This document shows positions 2,949-24,000 of a stretch of 24,000 nucleotides of DNA, in pieces; within the stretch, counting starts at the first letter, position 1, and every line of letters starts with the position of its first letter. A program made the position numbers and the translations under genes. The notes under the pieces are model-generated. The model was not told the DNA's origin. It ran no database searches and saw only the letters and a program-made list of their open reading frames with translations. The DNA is from an uncultured Gammaproteobacteria bacterium (lineage in GTDB: Bacteria > Pseudomonadota > Gammaproteobacteria > DSM-19610), in assembly GCA_963719135.1 (NCBI GenBank), contig CAVRAZ010000006.1, positions 116,686 to 140,685 on the forward strand. The letters run 5' to 3'.

Positions 2949-4457
2949 CTAGAACTTCACCGCGTAGCTCGCCTCGATGGCGTTCTGCTGCATGGCGTTT
3001 CTGGCGGAGTAGCCGAAGCCGGTAAATGGACCACTGCCATTGTAGTCGGTTCCGACGTTGTTGCGCAGCGCGTGCATATAGGTCAGGGTGAACTCGCGGT
3101 CCTCGCTCGACGCATAGGTGAAGCCGACCGTCATATGCTTCTCGACCACCGCTGGCGCAAGCACGTTGAACAGCGCCTGATCGCCGTCATACGGCGCTTT
3201 CGCGTAGTTGAAGCCGGCGCGGAAGGTCCATTGGCTGTTATACGCGTAATCCACGCCCGCCTTGTAGACGGTCACGTCCTTCCAGCCGAAGCCCCAGCCG
3301 TTGTTGGTGCCCAGCGGCGCGGAAATCCCGGTGCCGGGCGCGGTGCCGTTGGACAGCGCGTAGGCAAAGGCGCTGAGGAACTCGTTCGCCGTCGGACCTT
3401 TGTTGGAGATGGACGCGACGTTGCCGTACAGAATGCGCGTGACGTCCACGCCGAAGTGCACTTTCGGCGTGACTTCGAGCAAAATCCCCGCGCCGTAGGT
3501 CGCGGGTATGTCGAAATCGCCGTGCTCCGCGAACAAGCCGGCGTACTTGTTGAACTTGCTCATGTAGATCTTGGAGGTCGCCGACGCGCCGATGGACACC
3601 GGCCCGAAGTGGCCCAGGTAGCCGATGCGCCCGCCGTAACCCCAGGCGTCATCGTCGCCGTTGTTGGTCAGATGGCCGGGGTTTGACGAGAAACCCGAGA
3701 ACAGCCCCAGACCGTACGCGCGGAACCGCTGGTAGCCGATGATCGGCGAGAACCCCAGGGAGTGGTGCTCGTTGAATTTGTAGGCGATGGTCGGCGTGAT
3801 CAGAATCTGCGCCAGGTTGACGCCCAGCGTCGAACTCAGGCCCGGCGCGCCGAACAGCCCGGCCATCGCCGCGTCGATTTGGGCCGGCGCCACGCCGAAC
3901 CCGGTTTCGAGCAGACCTGCAAACCCGCTGGGCCCCGGCGGCGACGGCGGCGCGGGAAACGTGTTGTTGGAACTCTGGCCGATGACCGGCGCGAACGCGT
4001 TGAAATAGAGATTGTCGTTATAGCGGGTGTTCATGCCGCCGTTGGCGACCATTGCGAGCCCCAGCGTCAAAGCGCCGTGGTTCCACGCGAACCCCAGGTT
4101 GGGGATGGCAAACAGCGTCGCGCCGCTGTTCGTGTTCGCATCCATACCGCTGAGCGCAACGCCCGCACCGAGGTCGGGAACCGACAGACCGGTGGCATCG
4201 ACGGTCGATTCACGCTGTGGGTTGAACAACTCGAGGCCGCCGTCGACGCGGTCGCCCATGCCGGCCAGCGTGGCGGGGTTGATTGCCGGCGCCAGCGAAT
4301 CCTGGCCGTAGGCCATGCCCATGCCGGCGAGGCCGCGGTTCTTGGACCCGTAGCCGATCTTGAAGTAGCCGTTGGTCGCCTCCGCCAGCGGTGCTGCCAA
4401 TGTCGCCGCCGCCACGGCGATCGCCATGATGGTCTGCCTGATGCCCGTTGTTTTCAT
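2949..4457 (-). CDS. FadL/OmpP1/TodX-family outer-membrane hydrophobic-compound channel
   Basis: 502 aa. Signal peptide (MKTTGIRQTIMAIAVAAATLAAPLAEA), an N-terminal hatch-like GYFKIGYGSKNRGLAGMGMAYGQDSLAPAINPATLA, beta-barrel-type alternating Gly/aromatic composition, and a C-terminal aromatic residue (...SYAVKF). Confidence 0.85.
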   Translation of the reverse strand: MKTTGIRQTIMAIAVAAATLAAPLAEATNGYFKIGYGSKNRGLAGMGMAYGQDSLAPAINPATLAGMGDRVDGGLELFNPQRESTVDATGLSVPDLGAGVALSGMDANTNSGATLFAIPNLGFAWNHGALTLGLAMVANGGMNTRYNDNLYFNAFAPVIGQSSNNTFPAPPSPPGPSGFAGLLETGFGVAPAQIDAAMAGLFGAPGLSSTLGVNLAQILITPTIAYKFNEHHSLGFSPIIGYQRFRAYGLGLFSGFSSNPGHLTNNGDDDAWGYGGRIGYLGHFGPVSIGASATSKIYMSKFNKYAGLFAEHGDFDIPATYGAGILLEVTPKVHFGVDVTRILYGNVASISNKGPTANEFLSAFAYALSNGTAPGTGISAPLGTNNGWGFGWKDVTVYKAGVDYAYNSQWTFRAGFNYAKAPYDGDQALFNVLAPAVVEKHMTVGFTYASSEDREFTLTYMHALRNNVGTDYNGSGPFTGFGYSARNAMQQNAIEASYAVKF

Positions 4458-4762
4458 GTGCCCGTTCCCTCGTCGTTTCGGTGGCCGCGCCGCGACACGT
4501 CATTCGTTCGAAGCGCCCTGTCTGTTGCGGTAGTGCAACGAATAATTGACGTGTCTGCTACAACATGGAGTAGCCTGATCCATATTGTCAAATTTCCAAA
4601 CGGACTGAAGCAATTTGCGTGCCTCGCCTAACACCCTGATTTTGCGGCTCAGTCCCGCCAATAATCCGACGAATTCGCGCGCACGCAGGTTGCCATTTGC
4701 GGCATTCCGGCGATATCCTGACTCGCCGTAGCAACGAGACAACAACAATGGAGGAGCCGATC

Positions 4763-6163: not shown

Positions 6164-8803
6164 TCAGGACTTGAACAGAATGCGGCGATAGCCGCCCGCC
6201 ACGAGCGCGGCGGTGTCGATCAGCAGCGCGGGCAGCGGCGTCAGCAACGGGTAGGCCAGGTAGGTCCCGCGCCATGCCGGATGGAATTTCTCCTTGAAGC
6301 TCCGCAATCCCTTGTAGTTGTAGAACCGGTTCCCGTATTCGTAGGCGATGCGCGCGACGCGCTCGCCAGCGCGCGCATAGCGTGTGGTTCCGACGCCCGC
6401 CAGCGGCGCCACGCCCAGGTTGAACGCGTGGTATCCCGCCTCGCGCGCGTATTCGAGGATGTTGGCGAACAGGAATTCCATGGTGCCGGGCGGTGTGTCG
6501 CGGACGTGCCGCATCAGATCGATGCTCAGTTCGTCGTGACGCGCATAGTCGGGCATCAGGTTGGCGAAGGCGACGATGCTATCGCCCTTCCTGACGACCG
6601 CCAGTTCGCTGCGCGCCAGGTAGTTTTCATCGAACCGGCCGAGCGAAAACCCTTTTTCCGCGCTGTGGCGCTCCGCCAGCCAGGCGTCCGATACCGCGCG
6701 CAGCGCGGGCCAGAGCGCCGGGTCAAAGGGCGGCCGCAGCATTTCGAACAGCACGCCGTCGCGTTTGGCGCGATTGACGCTGTGGCGGACGGCTTCGCCG
6801 CGTTTGCCGGCCAGCGTGAAGCCGGACAAGTCGATGACAGCCATTTCGCCCAGTTTGAACAGCGCAAAGCCGGCATCGTGGTAGTGGTGCAGATTTCTGT
6901 CCTCGACCTCGTAGAAACAGGGAATCAGATTATGCCGGTCGGCAAATTCGCGAAACCCGATGATCGCGTCCCTGAACGCGTCGGGATTGCCGCAGGGGTC
7001 GCCCAGCGCCACCAGGCGGTCGCGAATCTGGCCGAACTGAACGAACGCCTGGCGGTCGGCGGACCAGTGAAGATACTTGTCGCCGGAGAAGAACAGATGG
7101 GAGAAGCCGCTGCCGCCGAAGCGATCGAGCACACCCTTGACGTCCGCGACGTCGTTGCGGTCCGGCAGCCTGCAGACCGCCCGCGGCGCGCGATACAGCG
7201 ACCAGGCGATGACCCCGATGGTAAGGCCCAGCGCGATCAGCAGCCCGCGGACGAAACGCGATGCGGCCGGCGCCGCATCGAGGTGGAGCAACAGGTCGAG
7301 ATTCGTGAGAACCCGGCCGTGCACCCAGCCGCCCAGCCAGGCGAACCCCGCGATCGCGACCACCAGCGCGAGCAGCCAGTTCAGATTCTGCACGCTCAGC
7401 AACGGGTAGCTTTGCCGGTAGAATCTCGCTGCCTGCGTGCGCAGCAGGAATGCGACCAGCAACAGCGCGCCCGCCTCCTCGTAATCGATGCCCTTGACCA
7501 GGCTGAGCACCGCACCCGCCACCAGCAGCACCATCGCCATGCGGTAGGCGCCGCGAACCTGCTGGGCGATGCCGCGCGAAACCGCGATGAGCATGACGCC
7601 GGTGACCACCGACAGCGAGTGGGAAAACTCGATGGCGACGTTCGGCACGTAGCGGGTCAAAAGCATCAGTCGACCGGCCAGCGCCGGGAACGCGGCCGAT
7701 GCCAGCAGTATCGCGCCGGCGGCGAAGGTGAGATAGGCCAGCACCCGAACGCCGAGCGCCGCGAGCACGTTCAGCGGGATCCGCAGAAAAGACAGCGCGC
7801 CGCTGTCGCGCCACTGCCTGACCAGCGCCAGATGCTGCCAGGGCTTGTCCAGCGCCAGCCGGCCGGCACCCAGGAAGACGCCGATGACCCAGGGCACCAG
7901 AAAATAGCAGACGCGATAGATCAGTACGCCGGAGACCAGCGGTTCCGGGCTCGGTGTGAACGGCGACATCAGCGCCACCATCGACACCTCGAAGACACCG
8001 AGACCGCCGGGCACGAGGCTCAGAATTCCCAGCGCACAGGCGAGAATGAAGGCCGAGATGAACGCCAGCCAGTGAAACTGGACGCCGCTGGCCTGCAGCG
8101 CGACCGCCAGCACCAGCGCGGCGAGCAGCCAGTCCAGGGTCGATATCACCGTCATCGCCATCAACCCCGAAAGCCTGATACCCGCCGGCAGTGCGATGAT
8201 CGAGGGCAGGAGCCGGCGCCGCAGGATGAGAAAGTAGGCGGGCAGATAGGCGGCGAACCCGGCCAGGGCCAGGAAACCGAGCCAGGTCGGCAGCGGCAGC
8301 CGGTGAAGCCCCGCCCCTCCGGTCAGCAGCACCGGCCAGCACAGCACCGCGAGGCCGACCGGTATCGAGAACAGGATGAGTGTCGAAAACGCAACGGCCT
8401 GCCCGACGCCGACCGTTTCGCTGGTAAACAGCAGGCGGATTCCGGAGCCCGCAAGCCCGGAAAAACCGATCACATTGTTGAAGGTGTTCGCGATCCAGGC
8501 ATTGCGCAACAGCACCGCCGGCGCGAACCGCAGTTTCAGCATGCGCGATGCCTGCCAGTCATAGCAGGTCATGGCCAACACACCGATCAGCGCCAGCGTC
8601 TGCACGAGCAACAAGCGGGTGATGTCGACCGACCGGAAAACCGAGCGGATGGCATGGACATCCAGTTTGCCCAGCTCGCGCGCCGAAATGAGGAGCGCAA
8701 TGGTGAAGAAGACGAAAGGCGCGACCCGCCGTATCCGGCGCAGGGCCGGTGAAGGTGCGGGTCTGTCTTGCAGTGAATGGCTCGAAGCAGTTTTCAAGGA
8801 CAC
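6164..8803 (-). CDS. mprF: bifunctional aminoacyl-phosphatidylglycerol (lysyl-PG) synthase/flippase, MprF family
   Basis: 879 aa. About 550 aa of polytopic membrane domain are followed by a soluble C-terminal domain (..FSHLFFSGDKYLHWS...FVQFGQIRDRLVALGDP...FYEV...GFALFKLGEMAVIDL...KRGEAVRHSVNRAKRDG...FSLGRFDENYL...FYNYKGLRSFKEKFHPAW), typical of the LPG-synthase C domain. The start is a GTG with no obvious SD, so it is uncertain. Confidence 0.8.
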   Translation of the reverse strand: MSLKTASSHSLQDRPAPSPALRRIRRVAPFVFFTIALLISARELGKLDVHAIRSVFRSVDITRLLLVQTLALIGVLAMTCYDWQASRMLKLRFAPAVLLRNAWIANTFNNVIGFSGLAGSGIRLLFTSETVGVGQAVAFSTLILFSIPVGLAVLCWPVLLTGGAGLHRLPLPTWLGFLALAGFAAYLPAYFLILRRRLLPSIIALPAGIRLSGLMAMTVISTLDWLLAALVLAVALQASGVQFHWLAFISAFILACALGILSLVPGGLGVFEVSMVALMSPFTPSPEPLVSGVLIYRVCYFLVPWVIGVFLGAGRLALDKPWQHLALVRQWRDSGALSFLRIPLNVLAALGVRVLAYLTFAAGAILLASAAFPALAGRLMLLTRYVPNVAIEFSHSLSVVTGVMLIAVSRGIAQQVRGAYRMAMVLLVAGAVLSLVKGIDYEEAGALLLVAFLLRTQAARFYRQSYPLLSVQNLNWLLALVVAIAGFAWLGGWVHGRVLTNLDLLLHLDAAPAASRFVRGLLIALGLTIGVIAWSLYRAPRAVCRLPDRNDVADVKGVLDRFGGSGFSHLFFSGDKYLHWSADRQAFVQFGQIRDRLVALGDPCGNPDAFRDAIIGFREFADRHNLIPCFYEVEDRNLHHYHDAGFALFKLGEMAVIDLSGFTLAGKRGEAVRHSVNRAKRDGVLFEMLRPPFDPALWPALRAVSDAWLAERHSAEKGFSLGRFDENYLARSELAVVRKGDSIVAFANLMPDYARHDELSIDLMRHVRDTPPGTMEFLFANILEYAREAGYHAFNLGVAPLAGVGTTRYARAGERVARIAYEYGNRFYNYKGLRSFKEKFHPAWRGTYLAYPLLTPLPALLIDTAALVAGGYRRILFKS

Positions 8804-15762: not shown

Positions 15763-15835
15763 TGGGTCGTGTAGGATTCGAACCTACGACCAATTGGTTA
15801 AAAGCCAACTGCTCTACCGACTGAGCTAACGACCC
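15763..15835 (-). tRNA. tRNA-Lys (anticodon UUU); CCA not encoded
   Basis: The minus strand reads GGGTCGTTAGCTCAGTCGGTAGAGCAGTTGGCTTTTAACCAATTGGTCGTAGGTTCGAATCCTACACGACCCA. It folds as a full cloverleaf with anticodon loop CTTTTAA and is almost identical to E. coli tRNA-Lys as I remember it. Confidence 0.95.
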
Positions 15836-16449: not shown

Positions 16450-17133
16450 TCAGCGATACCGCGTGGGATCGGCGATGCCGGCGTCGGCGAAACCGCGCGC
16501 GCGCAACCGGCAGGCGTCGCAGCGTCCACAGGCGCGTCCGTCAGCGTCGGCGGCGTAGCAGGAAAGGGTCAGCGCGTAATCAACGCCCAGCGCCGTACCG
16601 GCCTGGATGATCTCCGCCTTGGTCATGCGGATGAGCGGCGCACGGATATGGAATTCCGCGCCCTCGACACCCGCCCGCGTCGCTAAACGACTGAGGCGCT
16701 CGAAAGCTTCGATGTATTCCGGCCGGCAGTCGGGGTAGCCGGAGTAGTCGACCGCGTTGACGCCGATGAAGATATCGCGGGCGCCGAGCACTTCCGCCCA
16801 GCCCAGCGCGAGCGACAGGAAGACCGTGTTGCGCGCCGGCACATAGGTGACCGGGATCCCGTCCGACGGGTGCTCGGGAACCGCGATGGCGGCGTCGGTC
16901 AGCGCCGAGCCGCCGAACGCGCTCAGATCCAGCGCGATCACCTTCTGTTCGGCCACGCCGAGCTGCGCGGCGACGCGGCGCGCGGCGCCCAGTTCCGCCG
17001 CGTGGCGCTGGCCGTAATCCATGCTGAGCGCGTAACAGGCATAGCCGTCGCGGCGCGCGATCGCCAGCGTCGTGGCCGAATCCAGGCCGCCCGACAGCAG
17101 CACCACGGCCCTGCGTTCAGCGGCCGCGCTCAT
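16450..17133 (-). CDS. queC: 7-cyano-7-deazaguanine synthase QueC
   Basis: 227 aa. [14 protein letters not shown]-loop and a C-terminal zinc cluster (CY...[10 protein letters not shown]). Confidence 0.9.
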
Positions 17134-17794
17134 CGCCCCAGAGATATTTGTGAAGCTGGATCTGGAAGCGCACCGGCAGGCGGTCGGCCAGGATCCACTC
17201 GGCCAGTTCGCGGGCGTCCTGCTGACCGTGGCTCGGCGAGAACAGCACCTCGCAGCGCTCGGCCAGCCGGTGCTCGTGCAATCTATCGCAGGCCCAGCGG
17301 TAATCTTCGCGATCGCAGATCACGAACTTCACCTGGTCACCGGCTTTCAACAGATCGAGGTTCTCGTAACGGTTGCGGTCGCATTCACCCGATCCGGGCG
17401 TCTTCAGGTCCATGACCTTGACCACGCGCGGGTCGACGCCGCCGACATCCAGCGCACCGCCGGTTTCCAGCGAAACCCGGTAGCCTGCGTCGCAGAGTTC
17501 GCGCAACAGATCGGCGCAGGCGCGCTGCGCCAGCGGTTCGCCGCCGGTCACGGTGACGTGCCGCACGCCGAAGGCGGCGACGCGCGCGACGATCCCGGCG
17601 AGCGGTTCGGTCTGGCCGCCGCTGAACGCGTAGGCGGTGTCGCAGTAGCGGCAGCGCAGCGGACAACCGGTCAGACGCACGAACACGGTCGGCATACCGA
17701 CCGTGTCCGCCTCGCCTTGCAGGGACAGAAAGATCTCGGTGATACGAAGGGTGCCGGGCCCGGGCCGCGGCTCGCTGGTCTGCGCGTGCGTCAT
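17117..17794 (-). CDS. queE: 7-carboxy-7-deazaguanine synthase QueE (radical SAM)
   Basis: 225 aa. [18 protein letters not shown] and the radical-SAM cluster [10 protein letters not shown]. Overlaps queC by 17 nt. No SD is visible before the ATG. Confidence 0.9.
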
Positions 17795-22117: not shown

Positions 22118-22792
22118 CTATCCGTGCGCCTGCCGCTGCAGCAGACTGGAAAACTCTTCCAGGAAATTGTCGTAGCGGTTTTCCAGGCGCTCGACATCGT
22201 TCGAGTACCGGTTGTACGCGACCACGGCCGGGATCGCCGCGAACAATCCCATCGCCGTGGCGATCAGCGCTTCGGCAATGCCGGGCGCGACCATGGCCAG
22301 CGTCGCCTGGTGAACGTTGGCGAGGCCGCGAAATGCGTTCATGATGCCCCACACGGTGCCGAACAGGCCGACGTACGGACTGGTCGAACCGACCGTCGCC
22401 AGAAATGCCAGATGGGTCTCGAGGTTGTCGATTTCGCGCGACAACGCCACGCGCATGCTGCGCTGGGCGCCCTCGACAACGTCCATCGGGTCGGCGCCCG
22501 TCTGCCGGCGCAGGCGCGCGAACTCCTTGAAGCCGGCCACGAAGATGTGCGCCAGGCCGTGCGGGTCCCCTTCGCGGGGGGACACCTGCTGAAACAGTAC
22601 GTTCAGGTCGCCGCCCGACCAGAACCGCTGCTCGAAACGGTTGGCGTTCACCAGCGCCTGTTTGAGGCGCGACCGCTTGAGGAAGATCATGGTCCAGGAC
22701 ATCACCGAGACCACCAGCAGCAGCAGCATCACCAGCTTGACGACCACACTGGCGCCTGCGACCAGGTGGAAGAACGACAGATCAGCGGACAT
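22118..22792 (-). CDS. tolQ: Tol-Pal system protein TolQ (MotA/ExbB family)
   Basis: 224 aa with three TM segments and the conserved LATVGSTSPYVGLFGTVWGIMNAF and MVAPGIAEALIATAMGLFAAIPAV. Confidence 0.9.
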   Translation of the reverse strand: MSADLSFFHLVAGASVVVKLVMLLLLVVSVMSWTMIFLKRSRLKQALVNANRFEQRFWSGGDLNVLFQQVSPREGDPHGLAHIFVAGFKEFARLRRQTGADPMDVVEGAQRSMRVALSREIDNLETHLAFLATVGSTSPYVGLFGTVWGIMNAFRGLANVHQATLAMVAPGIAEALIATAMGLFAAIPAVVAYNRYSNDVERLENRYDNFLEEFSSLLQRQAHG

Positions 22793-23192
22793 TGTTCAGT
22801 TGCCCCAGCAACGGTTCGGGAATCGGGCGCGCGCGAAACCGCTCTGCATCGATACAGACGACGCGCACCCGCGCGGTGCACAGCGGACTGTCCTCACCCC
22901 GACGATATACATGCTGCAAAAAGTTCAGGCTTGCGCGACGGCAGGATTCCACATCGGCGGTTACGTCCAGGACGTCATTGAACACGGCCGGGCGAATGAA
23001 ATCAATCGTCATGGAATGCACGGCGAACAAAATGCCCAGCGCGCTTCTCAAACGGTCCTGTTCATAACCCAGTGCGCGCAACCGCTCGGTGCGCGCACGT
23101 TCCATAAACTTGAGATAGTTTGCGTGATAAACCACTTCGCCACTATCGGTGTCCTCGTAGTAAACACGCACCGACCAACGAAACAACGTCAA
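22782..23192 (-). CDS. ybgC: Tol-Pal-associated acyl-CoA thioesterase YbgC (4HBT hot-dog fold)
   Basis: (M)[35 protein letters not shown] aligns with the E. coli YbgC N-terminus [28 protein letters not shown] (from memory). The likely start is the TTG at 23192, 6 nt after AAGAGG; the TTG at 23186 is an alternative. The 177-aa form in the ORF track starts too far upstream. Confidence 0.8.
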   Translation of the reverse strand: [136 protein letters not shown]

Positions 23193-23336
23193 CCTCGACC
23201 TCTTCAGTGGACCACGATCAGTGACACAAATTCCCGCGCCCCCGATGCTCGCCCAATGTGCGACGGCGGCTTCGCGACGGGCGGTTAGCTTACCGATGTG
23301 AAAACGAGATTGCATCAGCTATCAACGCGACCGGAC

Positions 23337-23363
23337 AAAAAAAAGCGGCCGGGGGATGGCCGC
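23337..23363 (-). terminator. canonical intrinsic terminator upstream of ybgC
   Basis: The minus strand reads GCGGCC-AUCCCCC-GGCCGC followed by eight U. Confidence 0.8.
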
Positions 23364-23626
23364 TGTGAATCCCGAAACAGTCGGGAAGCAAGAGACCGGC
23401 AGGCATCGCCGGTGCTAGGAGGAGGAACAAATTCATCAACCGCGCGCGTCACTGTTGCCGTCGCGCGTTGCGGTGTCGGTCAGCCGCACCGAGCGCCGCC
23501 ACTTGAAAATCGGCCGCCCGGCTTCCGCACGGTTGCGGCGACCGGACAACCTCTCGACACCGGACCCGGTACCCGAGTTCTTACGGTGCCTCCAGCGTAC
23601 CAGGACGCAAATTGCCCGGCCTAACG
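23337..23626 (-). ncRNA. candidate sigma-54-dependent small RNA (~290 nt), family unknown
   Basis: Bounded by the RpoN promoter (predicted start ~23626) and the terminator at 23363-23337. It contains no SD-led ORF and is GC-hairpin rich. A UUCCUCCUCCU stretch (23427-23417) precedes two short hairpins and the terminator. Confidence 0.45.
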
Positions 23627-23636
23627 TCAATTGGAT

Positions 23637-23652
23637 GGCAATGTCCGTGCCA
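23637..23652 (-). promoter_or_regulatory. sigma-54 (RpoN) -24/-12 promoter TGGCACGGACATTGCC
   Basis: Matches TGGCAC-N5-TTGC with correct GG-N10-GC spacing. It lies immediately downstream of a sigma-54 activator gene. An ATCAATTGGTTA IHF-like core and an A/T-rich tract lie just upstream (23661-23695). Confidence 0.65.
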
Positions 23653-23702
23653 TTGGATGTAACCAATTGATCTTAATTAATTTACGAATTTTTGACACCT
23701 GC

Positions 23703-23725
23703 AAAACCCGCCCTGGGAGGGCTGG
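23703..23725 (-). terminator. possible intrinsic terminator of the activator gene
   Basis: The minus strand reads CCAGCCCU-CCC-AGGGCGGG (7 of 8 pairs) followed by UUUUG, about 110 nt after the stop at 23834. Confidence 0.4.
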
Positions 23726-23833
23726 GAACTGTCGCCGTAAAGCGTCAGACAAAGGGTTGCTTTAGATAAGCTGCTGTTCCGCATACGTTCCGGCCGTCTC
23801 TGATTTGAGACAGTCAGAAGCTGCGATGGCCGG

Positions 23834-24000
23834 TCAAAGACTCGCCGACTTGAACTGGGAAGGGTTAAGGTGATGCTTATGCAGCAATTTATAGAACTCG
23901 GTACGATTCCGCTTGGCGATGCGCGCGGCCTGGCTGACATTGCCGTTGGTGATCTGCAGCAACTGGGTCAGGTAATCGCGTTCGAAGCGGCTGCGGGCGT
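23834..24000 (-). CDS. sigma-54-dependent Fis-family transcriptional activator, C-terminal 54 codons only (GlrR/QseF-like)
   Basis: Absent from the ORF track because it is truncated. The minus strand gives ARSRFERDYLTQLLQITNGNVSQAARIAKRNRTEFYKLLHKHHLNPSQFKSASL with its stop at 23836-23834. This is the Fis-type HTH_8 tail of bacterial enhancer-binding proteins. The RNRTEFYKLL string matches my recollection of E. coli GlrR/YfhA. Confidence 0.8.
   Translation of the reverse strand, partial: ARSRFERDYLTQLLQITNGNVSQAARIAKRNRTEFYKLLHKHHLNPSQFKSASL

Follow-up and report, generated by a model that had tools for sequence, protein, structure and literature searches.

A predicted GlrR-type sigma-54 unit beside ybgC-tol-pal and its candidate small RNA from an mRNA 3' end

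Introduction

What does a sigma-54 promoter serve when the transcript that it is predicted to drive holds no recognisable gene? The question is raised by the interval between the 3' end of an activator gene and ybgC, the first gene of ybgC-tolQRAB-pal, in a 24,000-nucleotide stretch of DNA from an uncultured gammaproteobacterium (assembly GCA_963719135.1, contig CAVRAZ010000006.1, positions 116,686–140,685; this whole stretch is hereafter the window). The original prediction, made from the letters of the window alone, took the interval for a complete sigma-54 module driving a structured regulatory RNA of ~290 nt without an open reading frame (ORF). Here, the interval is compared with related loci. 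Judged by what is conserved, selection acts on the promoter and on a ~100-nt RNA domain at the 3' end, and not on a 290-nt structured RNA. Moreover, the distribution of coding sequence among the relatives indicates that the transcription unit is ancestrally the messenger RNA (mRNA) of an EF-hand protein, and that the ORF-less state of the window is derived. We read the interval as the output unit of a GlrK/lipoprotein/GlrR-type system and, with a confidence slightly above even, its 3' domain as most likely a new trans-acting small RNA (sRNA) from an mRNA 3' end.

A conserved promoter with GlrR-type activating sites

The window features discussed here all lie on the minus strand, and Lnnn designates the related loci used for comparison. 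The relatives come from two scans, of species-representative genomes with TolQ and of metagenomes with the activator C-terminus; requiring the element TGGCA[CT]-N5-TTGC at 150–270 nt past the activator stop codon gave about 45 loci. The part of the interval that precedes the predicted transcript contains the following features.

23834–24000 (minus): 3' end of a GlrR/QseF-type sigma-54 activator gene; the last 54 codons (23998–23837) and the stop codon, running off the window
23795–23812 (minus): upstream activating site 1, TGTCTCAAATCAGAGACG (TGTC-N10-GACg), 160 nt before the promoter
23730–23747 (minus): upstream activating site 2, TGACGCTTTACGGCGACA (TGaC-N10-GACA), 95 nt before the promoter and 65 nt from site 1
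23660–23671 (minus): tentative IHF-like core ATCAATTGGTTA in an A/T-rich tract
23638–23652 (minus): sigma-54 promoter TGGCACGGACATTGC (-24 GG, -12 GC), with a predicted start near 23626

The promoter element TGGCACGGACATTGC (23652–23638), originally described as a near-consensus RpoN -24/-12 element, is an exact match to TGGCAC-N5-TTGC. Because ~2 sigma-54 sites are expected by chance per 24-kb window when one mismatch is allowed, the motif is weak evidence from the window alone, and the case rests on the relatives: an equivalent promoter, conserved in place, follows the activator gene in about 45 related loci. The L002 promoter (L002:5273–5287) deviates at -24, reading TGGTGT-N5-TTGC.

The activating sites behave similarly. 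The first of the two TGTC...GAC dyads originally proposed, TGTCTCAAATCAGAGACG at 23812–23795, stands as described, and TGTC-N10-GACA is found at the equivalent position in about 35 loci. The second had been placed in the wrong register: it is not an N14 dyad but TGAC-N10-GACA at 23747–23730, and this site is conserved in L161. Across the about 35 loci, two TGTC-N10-GACA sites occur at -170/-104 or at -160/-95, always 64–66 nt apart. The consensus for E. coli GlrR sites is TGTCN10GACA (PMC3045617); the enhancer sites of the window and its relatives fit it, those of the window each being one base off. Since dyad-type motifs are not above chance in the window as a whole (10 found, 7.5 expected), their significance derives from positional conservation. 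The IHF-like core is present in its A/T-rich tract as proposed, abuts the -24 element, and matches the IHF consensus WATCARNNNNTTR (PMC3045617) except for the first base; its position and conservation are less convincing, as it is kept in place only in L161 and L165—that is, with the window, in three of the four members of the window clade introduced below—and in L002. An IHF site was accordingly rejected as a general feature of the unit.

In the relatives, promoter, enhancer sites and terminator are conserved. By these sequence features the interval is a sigma-54 unit with GlrR-type sites: a GG at -24 and a GC at -12 with the correct spacing, upstream sites, and an enhancer-binding activator.

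Elsewhere in the window, a second sigma-54-like element with one mismatch, AGGCACGCAAATTGC (4610–4624, minus strand), lies ~150 nt upstream of a gene for a FadL/TodX-type outer-membrane protein (2949–4457, minus strand). No TGTC-N10-GACA was found near it.

Orthologues of the activator lie in a GlrK/lipoprotein/GlrR-type operon

The tail of the activator encoded in the window is 90–98% identical to the full-length activators of L001–L005, five syntenic loci in metagenome-assembled genomes (MAGs). The L161 orthologue and E. coli GlrR share 59% identity across the entire protein (443 aa), helix-turn-helix included; the architecture expected of a GlrR orthologue is a receiver domain, a sigma-54 AAA+ domain and a C-terminal helix-turn-helix. 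The best NCBIfam match of the L002 activator is the GlrR equivalog (606 bits, with a curated cut-off of 763), followed by NtrC at 400. The resemblance to GlrR/QseF that was originally noted in the tail of the protein is thus borne out in the orthologues, and on these comparisons the activator is a GlrR/QseF orthologue. Given that both the DNA-binding helix and the site consensus match those of E. coli GlrR, the promoter is probably testable directly in E. coli.

In L002 and L161, where the genes corresponding to those outside the window can be read, the operon runs kinase, lipobox protein of 170–188 aa, regulator. In L161, the kinase and E. coli GlrK share 32% identity end to end (E = 1e-72). 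The middle protein has a signal peptide and a lipobox (LAGC in L002, AGGC in L161); searches found neither a detectable resemblance to QseG of E. coli (E = 3.1) nor a match in Pfam or NCBIfam. It is conserved between the two loci (L161:3433–3945 and L002:3124–3690), with a shared C-terminal ...IEQNIQDRTK. In E. coli, the gene order is glmY-glrK-qseG-glrR. Here, the kinase gene is preceded, at a distance of only 77–80 nt, by a divergent gene for an FGGY kinase (L002 and L161), and the RNA unit follows glrR instead.

Promoter and 3' domain are conserved across a transcript whose middle is not

The predicted transcript, from near 23626 to the terminator, divides as follows.

23441–23626 (minus): 5' and middle part; unconstrained, judged by divergence within the clade; no ORF, and no EF-hand relic detected
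23415–23433 (minus): CU-rich stretch AAUUUGUUCCUCCUCCUAG, a candidate seed, anti-Shine-Dalgarno-like; conserved and predicted to be single-stranded
23395–23413 (minus): hairpin A (ACCGGC-GAUGCCU-GCCGGU), from hairpin detection and the clade alignment
23370–23386 (minus): hairpin B (UCCCGA-CUGUU-UCGGGA) with the motif GCUUCCC...GGGA, from a pattern search and a covariance model
23337–23364 (minus): intrinsic terminator AGCGGCC-AUCCCCC-GGCCGCU (stem 23364–23344) and eight U, from terminator detection and the family alignment

A search with YbgC identified the closest relatives, L161, L163 and L165, which together with the window make up the window clade; their YbgC proteins are, respectively, 89% (on a 709-kb contig), 84% and 78% identical to that of the window. 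All four members are ORF-less, at 267–319 nt. The identities of the window to L161, L163 and L165, in this order, are given below.

Sigma-54 promoter: 1.00, 0.93 and 0.93
Middle, 23611–23441: 0.40, 0.41 and 0.26, with 34–61 gapped columns
3' domain, 23440–23337: 0.87, 0.82 and 0.65
Terminator to ybgC: 0.80, 0.82 and 0.59

Identity between the window and L161 at third codon positions is 0.745 in ybgC and 0.68 in tolQ.

That the ~290 nt contain no ORF agrees with two further observations. The G+C content at third codon positions (GC3) of the three frames in the interval is 0.56–0.72, versus 0.80–0.87 in the neighbouring genes, and the four clade members have no reading frame in common, the indels between them not being multiples of three. 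Of the proposed 290-nt structured transcript, what stands is the last ~100 nt, which are conserved; the 5' two-thirds evolve without constraint.

An EF-hand gene lies behind the promoter in relatives and has been lost repeatedly

Behind the corresponding promoter, 33 related loci have an ORF of 85–90 aa led by a Shine-Dalgarno sequence. Pfam recognises EF-hands in its product, which combines a signal peptide with two EF-hand loops (...IDSDHNGYVSRVEARSV...AFDSADANRDGLLD...EY...). The ORF is followed by a 3' tail consisting of hairpin A (variable in sequence), hairpin B, a U-rich linker, and a GCGGCC...GGCCGC terminator with eight U. Hairpin B of these relatives is CU-rich on its 5' side and has a base, UCCC...GGGA, that does not vary; beyond the tail come the conserved block GGTAAGCT and then ybgC. 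Members of the EF-hand family include L003:5084–5353, L004:5090–5383 and L090:4579–4839, with about 30 more (loops IDSDHNGYVSRVEARSV ... DSADANRDGLLD).

Other loci carry parts of this gene, or none of it. L089 keeps only the C-terminal 24 codons (protein hidden Markov model (HMM), E = 3e-9; DNA HMM, E = 9e-19), L095 only the N-terminal 35 codons (E = 3e-8 and E = 2e-16, respectively), and L133 frameshifted traces, while L001/L103 derives from the L100/L101 type by a 5' deletion. Only short signal-peptide-like ORFs remain in L002 and L005: a Shine-Dalgarno-led, hydrophobic ORF of 24 aa in L002 (MKALAVPFALLLSMSIVVSILYAG) and, in the same place, one of 42 aa in L005. They could be what is left of truncated signal peptides, or else genuine small membrane proteins. 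Finally, L128, L129 and L154 have ORF-less transcripts of 160–175 nt with CCUCUCCU, a hairpin A, UCCC-CCUCC-GGGA, and a different terminator. In all ORF-less loci scanned (a set without L163 and L165), the promoter is kept (as a variant in L002), together with at least one N10 dyad and mostly both. Taken together, the states of these loci indicate that the EF-hand gene is a gene deleted or broken independently in several lineages.

Within the window clade, no EF-hand relic was detected by protein HMM, DNA HMM or tblastn (all E > 1). Two decayed EF loops proposed by eye, 'NSGTGSGVERLS' and 'TATRDGNSDARG', were rejected on the same searches.

The presence of an EF-hand family behind a GlrR-linked promoter suggests a calcium- or envelope-related output of the two-component system. 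A literature search for EF-hand proteins with sigma-54 or GlrR found no link.

The cargo behind the regulator varies between lineages. In L155, a promoter of this kind precedes the gene of a divergent EF-hand protein of 102 aa (L155:4843–5151; DTDADGFVTLSEA ... DKNADGKLDASEF), and the 3' untranslated region (UTR) of that gene, in the region to 5307, differs in lacking hairpin B and in having a C-rich stretch ahead of the terminator. In L140–L158, which have no ybgC, a sigma-54 promoter lies 330–600 nt past a GlrR-type gene (for example L145:2438-, L150:4839- and L144:1919-) and precedes either a second response-regulator gene or genes for lipoproteins of 150–550 aa whose linkers are rich in Gly/Ser/Thr.

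Structure and specificity of the 3' RNA domain

The anti-Shine-Dalgarno stretch, the two short hairpins and the terminator with its U8 run, all noted originally, are present and conserved. The anti-Shine-Dalgarno sequence itself, UUCCUCCUCCU at 23427–23417, is conserved; UUGUUCCUCCU is identical in all four members of the clade and, by prediction, unpaired; and similar CU-rich stretches occur in L001, L100, L101, L083, L128, L129 and L154. The minimum-free-energy fold of the window pairs the CU-rich stretch with a GGAGG on the 5' side; this pairing was discarded, L161 and L163 having no such GGAGG.

Hairpin A keeps its stem in the clade, with a changed loop in L161 and L163 and a C-G pair replaced by U-A in L165. 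In other clades a hairpin of unrelated sequence occupies its place, and the 40 nt before hairpin B have a mean folding z of -1.76 relative to shuffled sequence (n = 28), folding better in most loci. In hairpin B, the inner pairs GA/UC are replaced by UUU/AAA in L165, above a stem base that is invariant in sequence; in the family alignment this hairpin is 82% paired and mostly invariant in sequence. The terminator helix is paired in 97.8% of cells of the family alignment, with compensatory changes in five of seven pairs (within the clade, one pair changes from A-U to C-G), and its U-run is U7–U10 across relatives.

The combination of hairpin B and terminator is specific to this position. All 39 matches to the pattern YCCC-loop-GGGR at no more than 12 nt from a G+C-rich terminator with T6 fall here (2.66 Mb, both strands), as do all 40 matches to a covariance model of the two elements (592 kb). 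For the whole 291 nt, the description of the transcript as packed with GC hairpins is only modestly supported.

The domain matches no known family in Rfam: the window gave no match at the gathering threshold, nor any to GlmY_tke1 or GlmZ_SraJ at E <= 10 in 23200–23900, and eleven related loci gave none to GlmY_tke1 (RF00128) or GlmZ_SraJ (RF00083) at E <= 1, with chance matches only. The interval could not be aligned to E. coli glmY. A duplex-energy scan for targets within the window returned nothing specific.

The boundary with ybgC-tol-pal and the surrounding genes

Two further features lie downstream of the terminator.

23287–23314 (minus): promoter-like block of ybgC-tol-pal, TGCAAT-N16-TAAGCT within GGTAAGCT; conserved, with a putative promoter role
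22782–23192 (minus): ybgC, first gene of ybgC-tolQRAB-pal, from the ORF list and its context; probable TTG start at 23192

In the ORF list of the window, ybgC is followed by tolQ, tolR, tolA and tolB; its homologues are named 'tol-pal system-associated acyl-CoA thioesterase'. The block GGTAAGCT lies 34–54 nt past the U-run (38–43 nt in most) in every locus with a U-tract terminator, and three loci keep it after a different terminator or none. In the syntenic loci its form is (A/G)TGCAA-N16/17-GGTAAGCT, with TAAGCT as the -10. Although a sigma-70 scanner made no call on 23287–23314, this block is probably the ybgC-tol-pal promoter; on sequence conservation, tol-pal has its own promoter-like block after a strong terminator.

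The arrangement is not general. In the cultured Thiohalobacter sp. IOR34 (L166, CP128988.1), ruvC-ruvA-ruvB lies upstream of ybgC, with no glrK or glrR there, which places the GlrR unit beside tol-pal in only a subset of the group. The one hint toward the sulfur oxidiser originally proposed is that a related MAG carries the label Thiohalobacter; no sulfur-oxidation genes were found among the ten window ORFs scanned.

The window also contains a gene for an MprF-like lysyl-phosphatidylglycerol synthase (6164–8803, minus strand), a tRNA gene (15763–15835, minus strand) and, downstream of tol-pal, queC with a radical-SAM (queE-like) gene (16450–17794, minus strand).

Possible explanations of the unit

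Under the sRNA reading introduced at the outset, orthology and the conserved sites suggest that phosphorylated GlrR would bind the two upstream N10 dyads and activate sigma-54 polymerase at 23652–23638. Transcription from near 23626 to the U8 terminator at 23337 would give an RNA of ~290 nt. The ancestral form would have been the mRNA of a secreted EF-hand protein of 85–90 aa with a conserved 3' UTR; in the lineage of the window the coding part was presumably lost and its place now evolves freely, while selection would keep the promoter and the last ~100 nt (CU-rich strand, hairpin A, hairpin B and terminator). This 3' domain resembles a 3'-UTR-derived sRNA turned free-standing. By sequence, the double hairpin, U-rich linker and poly-U tail look like an Hfq-binding module, and the CU-rich stretch could base-pair with target mRNAs at G-rich, Shine-Dalgarno-like regions and lower their translation. 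Cleavage just upstream (GAAUUU) may release the 3' domain from the primary transcript.

Several observations weigh against this account. The stretch from the terminator to ybgC (0.59–0.82) is about as conserved as the 3' domain, such that part of the conservation could reflect control of tol-pal at the DNA level. The recent deletions in L089, L095 and L001 could retain promoter and tail for lack of time, and every genome with the locus is an uncultured MAG or a metagenome contig. Within the RNA, not every clade has the CU-rich stretch ahead of hairpin A, hairpin B is almost without covariation, its sequence being simply invariant, and the whole 291-nt RNA folds only marginally better than its shuffles (z = -2.0). 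An anti-Shine-Dalgarno seed is, furthermore, generic and singles out no target.

The main alternative, which we regard as unlikely although it deserves to be taken seriously, is that the unit is a decaying remnant: the RNA would be functionless, the promoter would persist by inertia, and the tail would serve as an insulator of tol-pal together with control DNA upstream of ybgC. Recurrent ORF loss with surviving relics, a freely evolving middle part, a terminator-to-ybgC stretch that matches the 3' domain in conservation, and a hairpin B conserved by sequence instead of covariation are all what such decay would leave. Against it, the middle part has diverged beyond recognition within the clade, yet the promoter remains 93–100% identical, and both activating sites are kept in L161 (the only one of the three relatives in which dyads were scored). 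An insulator, moreover, would require the terminator alone, and not a CU-rich stretch, a hairpin A with compensatory changes and a hairpin B; and the distant ORF-less loci L128, L129 and L154 preserve the same three-part layout with another terminator sequence. A further, improbable alternative gives the RNA a role in cis, as a leader or attenuator of ybgC-tol-pal in which conditional sigma-54 read-through adds GlrR control. In all loci of the group, the unit and ybgC do share a strand, with the unit immediately upstream; envelope signals act on GlrR-type systems (PMC6075780), and Tol-Pal, too, belongs to the envelope. The proposal has to contend, however, with a G+C-rich terminator stem of 7 bp followed by eight U, with the conserved promoter-like block between terminator and ybgC, and with the lack of a conserved alternative anti-terminator pairing. 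The same GlrR-promoter arrangement also occurs in loci without ybgC downstream (L126–L160), whereas tol-pal of other relatives, including Thiohalobacter sp. IOR34, has no such upstream element.

It is more doubtful still, to the point of being very improbable, that the interval encodes an unrecognised small protein, either in a TTG/ATG frame (MMNLFLLLAPAMPAGLLLP..., 23439–23290) or in an ORF like those of L002 and L005. A hydrophobic 'FLLLAP..AGLLLP' is readable in each of the four clade members, and in L002 and L005 Shine-Dalgarno sequences precede the ORFs of 24 and 42 aa, respectively; in the window clade, by contrast, the frame has neither a Shine-Dalgarno sequence nor a conserved start codon, crosses the terminator, and diverges past LLLP through indels of 1–2 nt in hairpin B, while GC3 is low and the shared peptide is explained by conserved nucleotides of the RNA elements. 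One such hidden ORF, 'MMNLFLLLAP...', was rejected for its lack of a Shine-Dalgarno sequence, its passage across the terminator and its shifts of frame between relatives. Least credible of all is a distant homologue of GlmY/GlmZ acting via RapZ and glmS. The activator type, the enhancer consensus and the sigma-54 promoter are indeed the same, and the layout has three hairpins; the RNA has no Rfam match in the window or the eleven relatives and cannot be aligned to E. coli glmY, it is placed after glrR and not ahead of glrK, and most relatives have it as the 3' UTR of a gene that codes for protein. GlmY/GlmZ homology is refuted by the covariance-model, alignment and position tests; the original expectation was a new family or a distant analogue.

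Significance

Returning to the trans-acting sRNA reading, its broader form—an ancient envelope-sensing system of the QseEGF/GlrKR type outside the Enterobacteriaceae with its own, GlmY-unrelated RNA output, born as the 3' UTR of the mRNA of a periplasmic EF-hand protein and repeatedly turned free-standing—is a possibility that we put forward tentatively, at less than even confidence. If it is true, the loci would form a natural series from intact gene through truncated relics to the ORF-less state, showing the birth of an sRNA gene from an mRNA, with the RNA and not the protein under the more persistent selection. Repeated loss of the ORF with retention of promoter and RNA tail would make the emergence of an sRNA from an mRNA 3' UTR stepwise and testable. 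GlrK/GlrR (QseE/QseF) and their RNA output GlmY are described in the literature as enterobacterial; here, an orthologous regulator and the same enhancer consensus are found in uncultured marine-sediment Gammaproteobacteria, at a different unit: the gene of a small secreted EF-hand protein, followed by a conserved RNA tail. The locus nominates a new sigma-54-dependent RNA family, and its EF-hand relatives suggest a possible calcium- or envelope-related regulon for GlrR-type systems.

Comparison with known systems

The nearest counterpart in regulation is GlmY/GlmZ with GlrK/QseG/GlrR. Shared features are (i) an orthologous regulator, (ii) an operon of kinase, putative lipoprotein and regulator, (iii) TGTC-N10-GACA sites with a sigma-54 promoter, and (iv) in the case of GlmY, a non-coding RNA output—here a predicted one—that adjoins the operon. 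The RNA of the present unit nevertheless has no sequence or covariance-model similarity to GlmY/GlmZ. It lies downstream of glrR, whereas GlmY lies upstream of glrK; it has two enhancer sites instead of three, and no overlapping sigma-70 promoter; it would be ancestrally the 3' UTR of an EF-hand mRNA; and the putative lipoprotein of its operon is without detectable similarity to QseG.

In its presumed origin, the unit resembles two sRNAs from mRNA 3' ends: CpxQ, from the 3' UTR of cpxP, a gene for a small periplasmic protein that an envelope two-component system controls (PMC9731577), and GlnZ, from the glnA 3' UTR and dependent on NtrC and sigma-54. As in both of these, the conserved RNA domain of the relatives is the 3' UTR of an mRNA from a stress- or signal-activated promoter and ends in an intrinsic terminator. 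The promoter is of the sigma-54 type, as for GlnZ, and the parent gene encodes a small secreted protein under what would be an envelope two-component system, as for CpxQ. There is no sequence relationship to either, and here, in contrast to them, the parent ORF has been repeatedly lost, leaving a promoter that would serve the RNA only.

For placement, the parallels are CrcZ (after cbrB) and NrsZ (after ntrC) of Pseudomonas, and Qrr with LuxO: in each, a sigma-54-dependent sRNA gene stands beside an activator gene, much as the putative sRNA gene described here stands right beside the gene for its own enhancer-binding activator. Activator family and RNA are different in these cases. CrcZ acts by protein sequestration through A-rich motifs, whereas the stretch exposed here is CU-rich, and we know of none among CrcZ, NrsZ and Qrr that derives from a lost coding gene. 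By analogy, the logic closest to that of the present locus would combine GlmY (regulator and site consensus), GlnZ/CpxQ (3' UTR origin) and CrcZ/NrsZ (placement).

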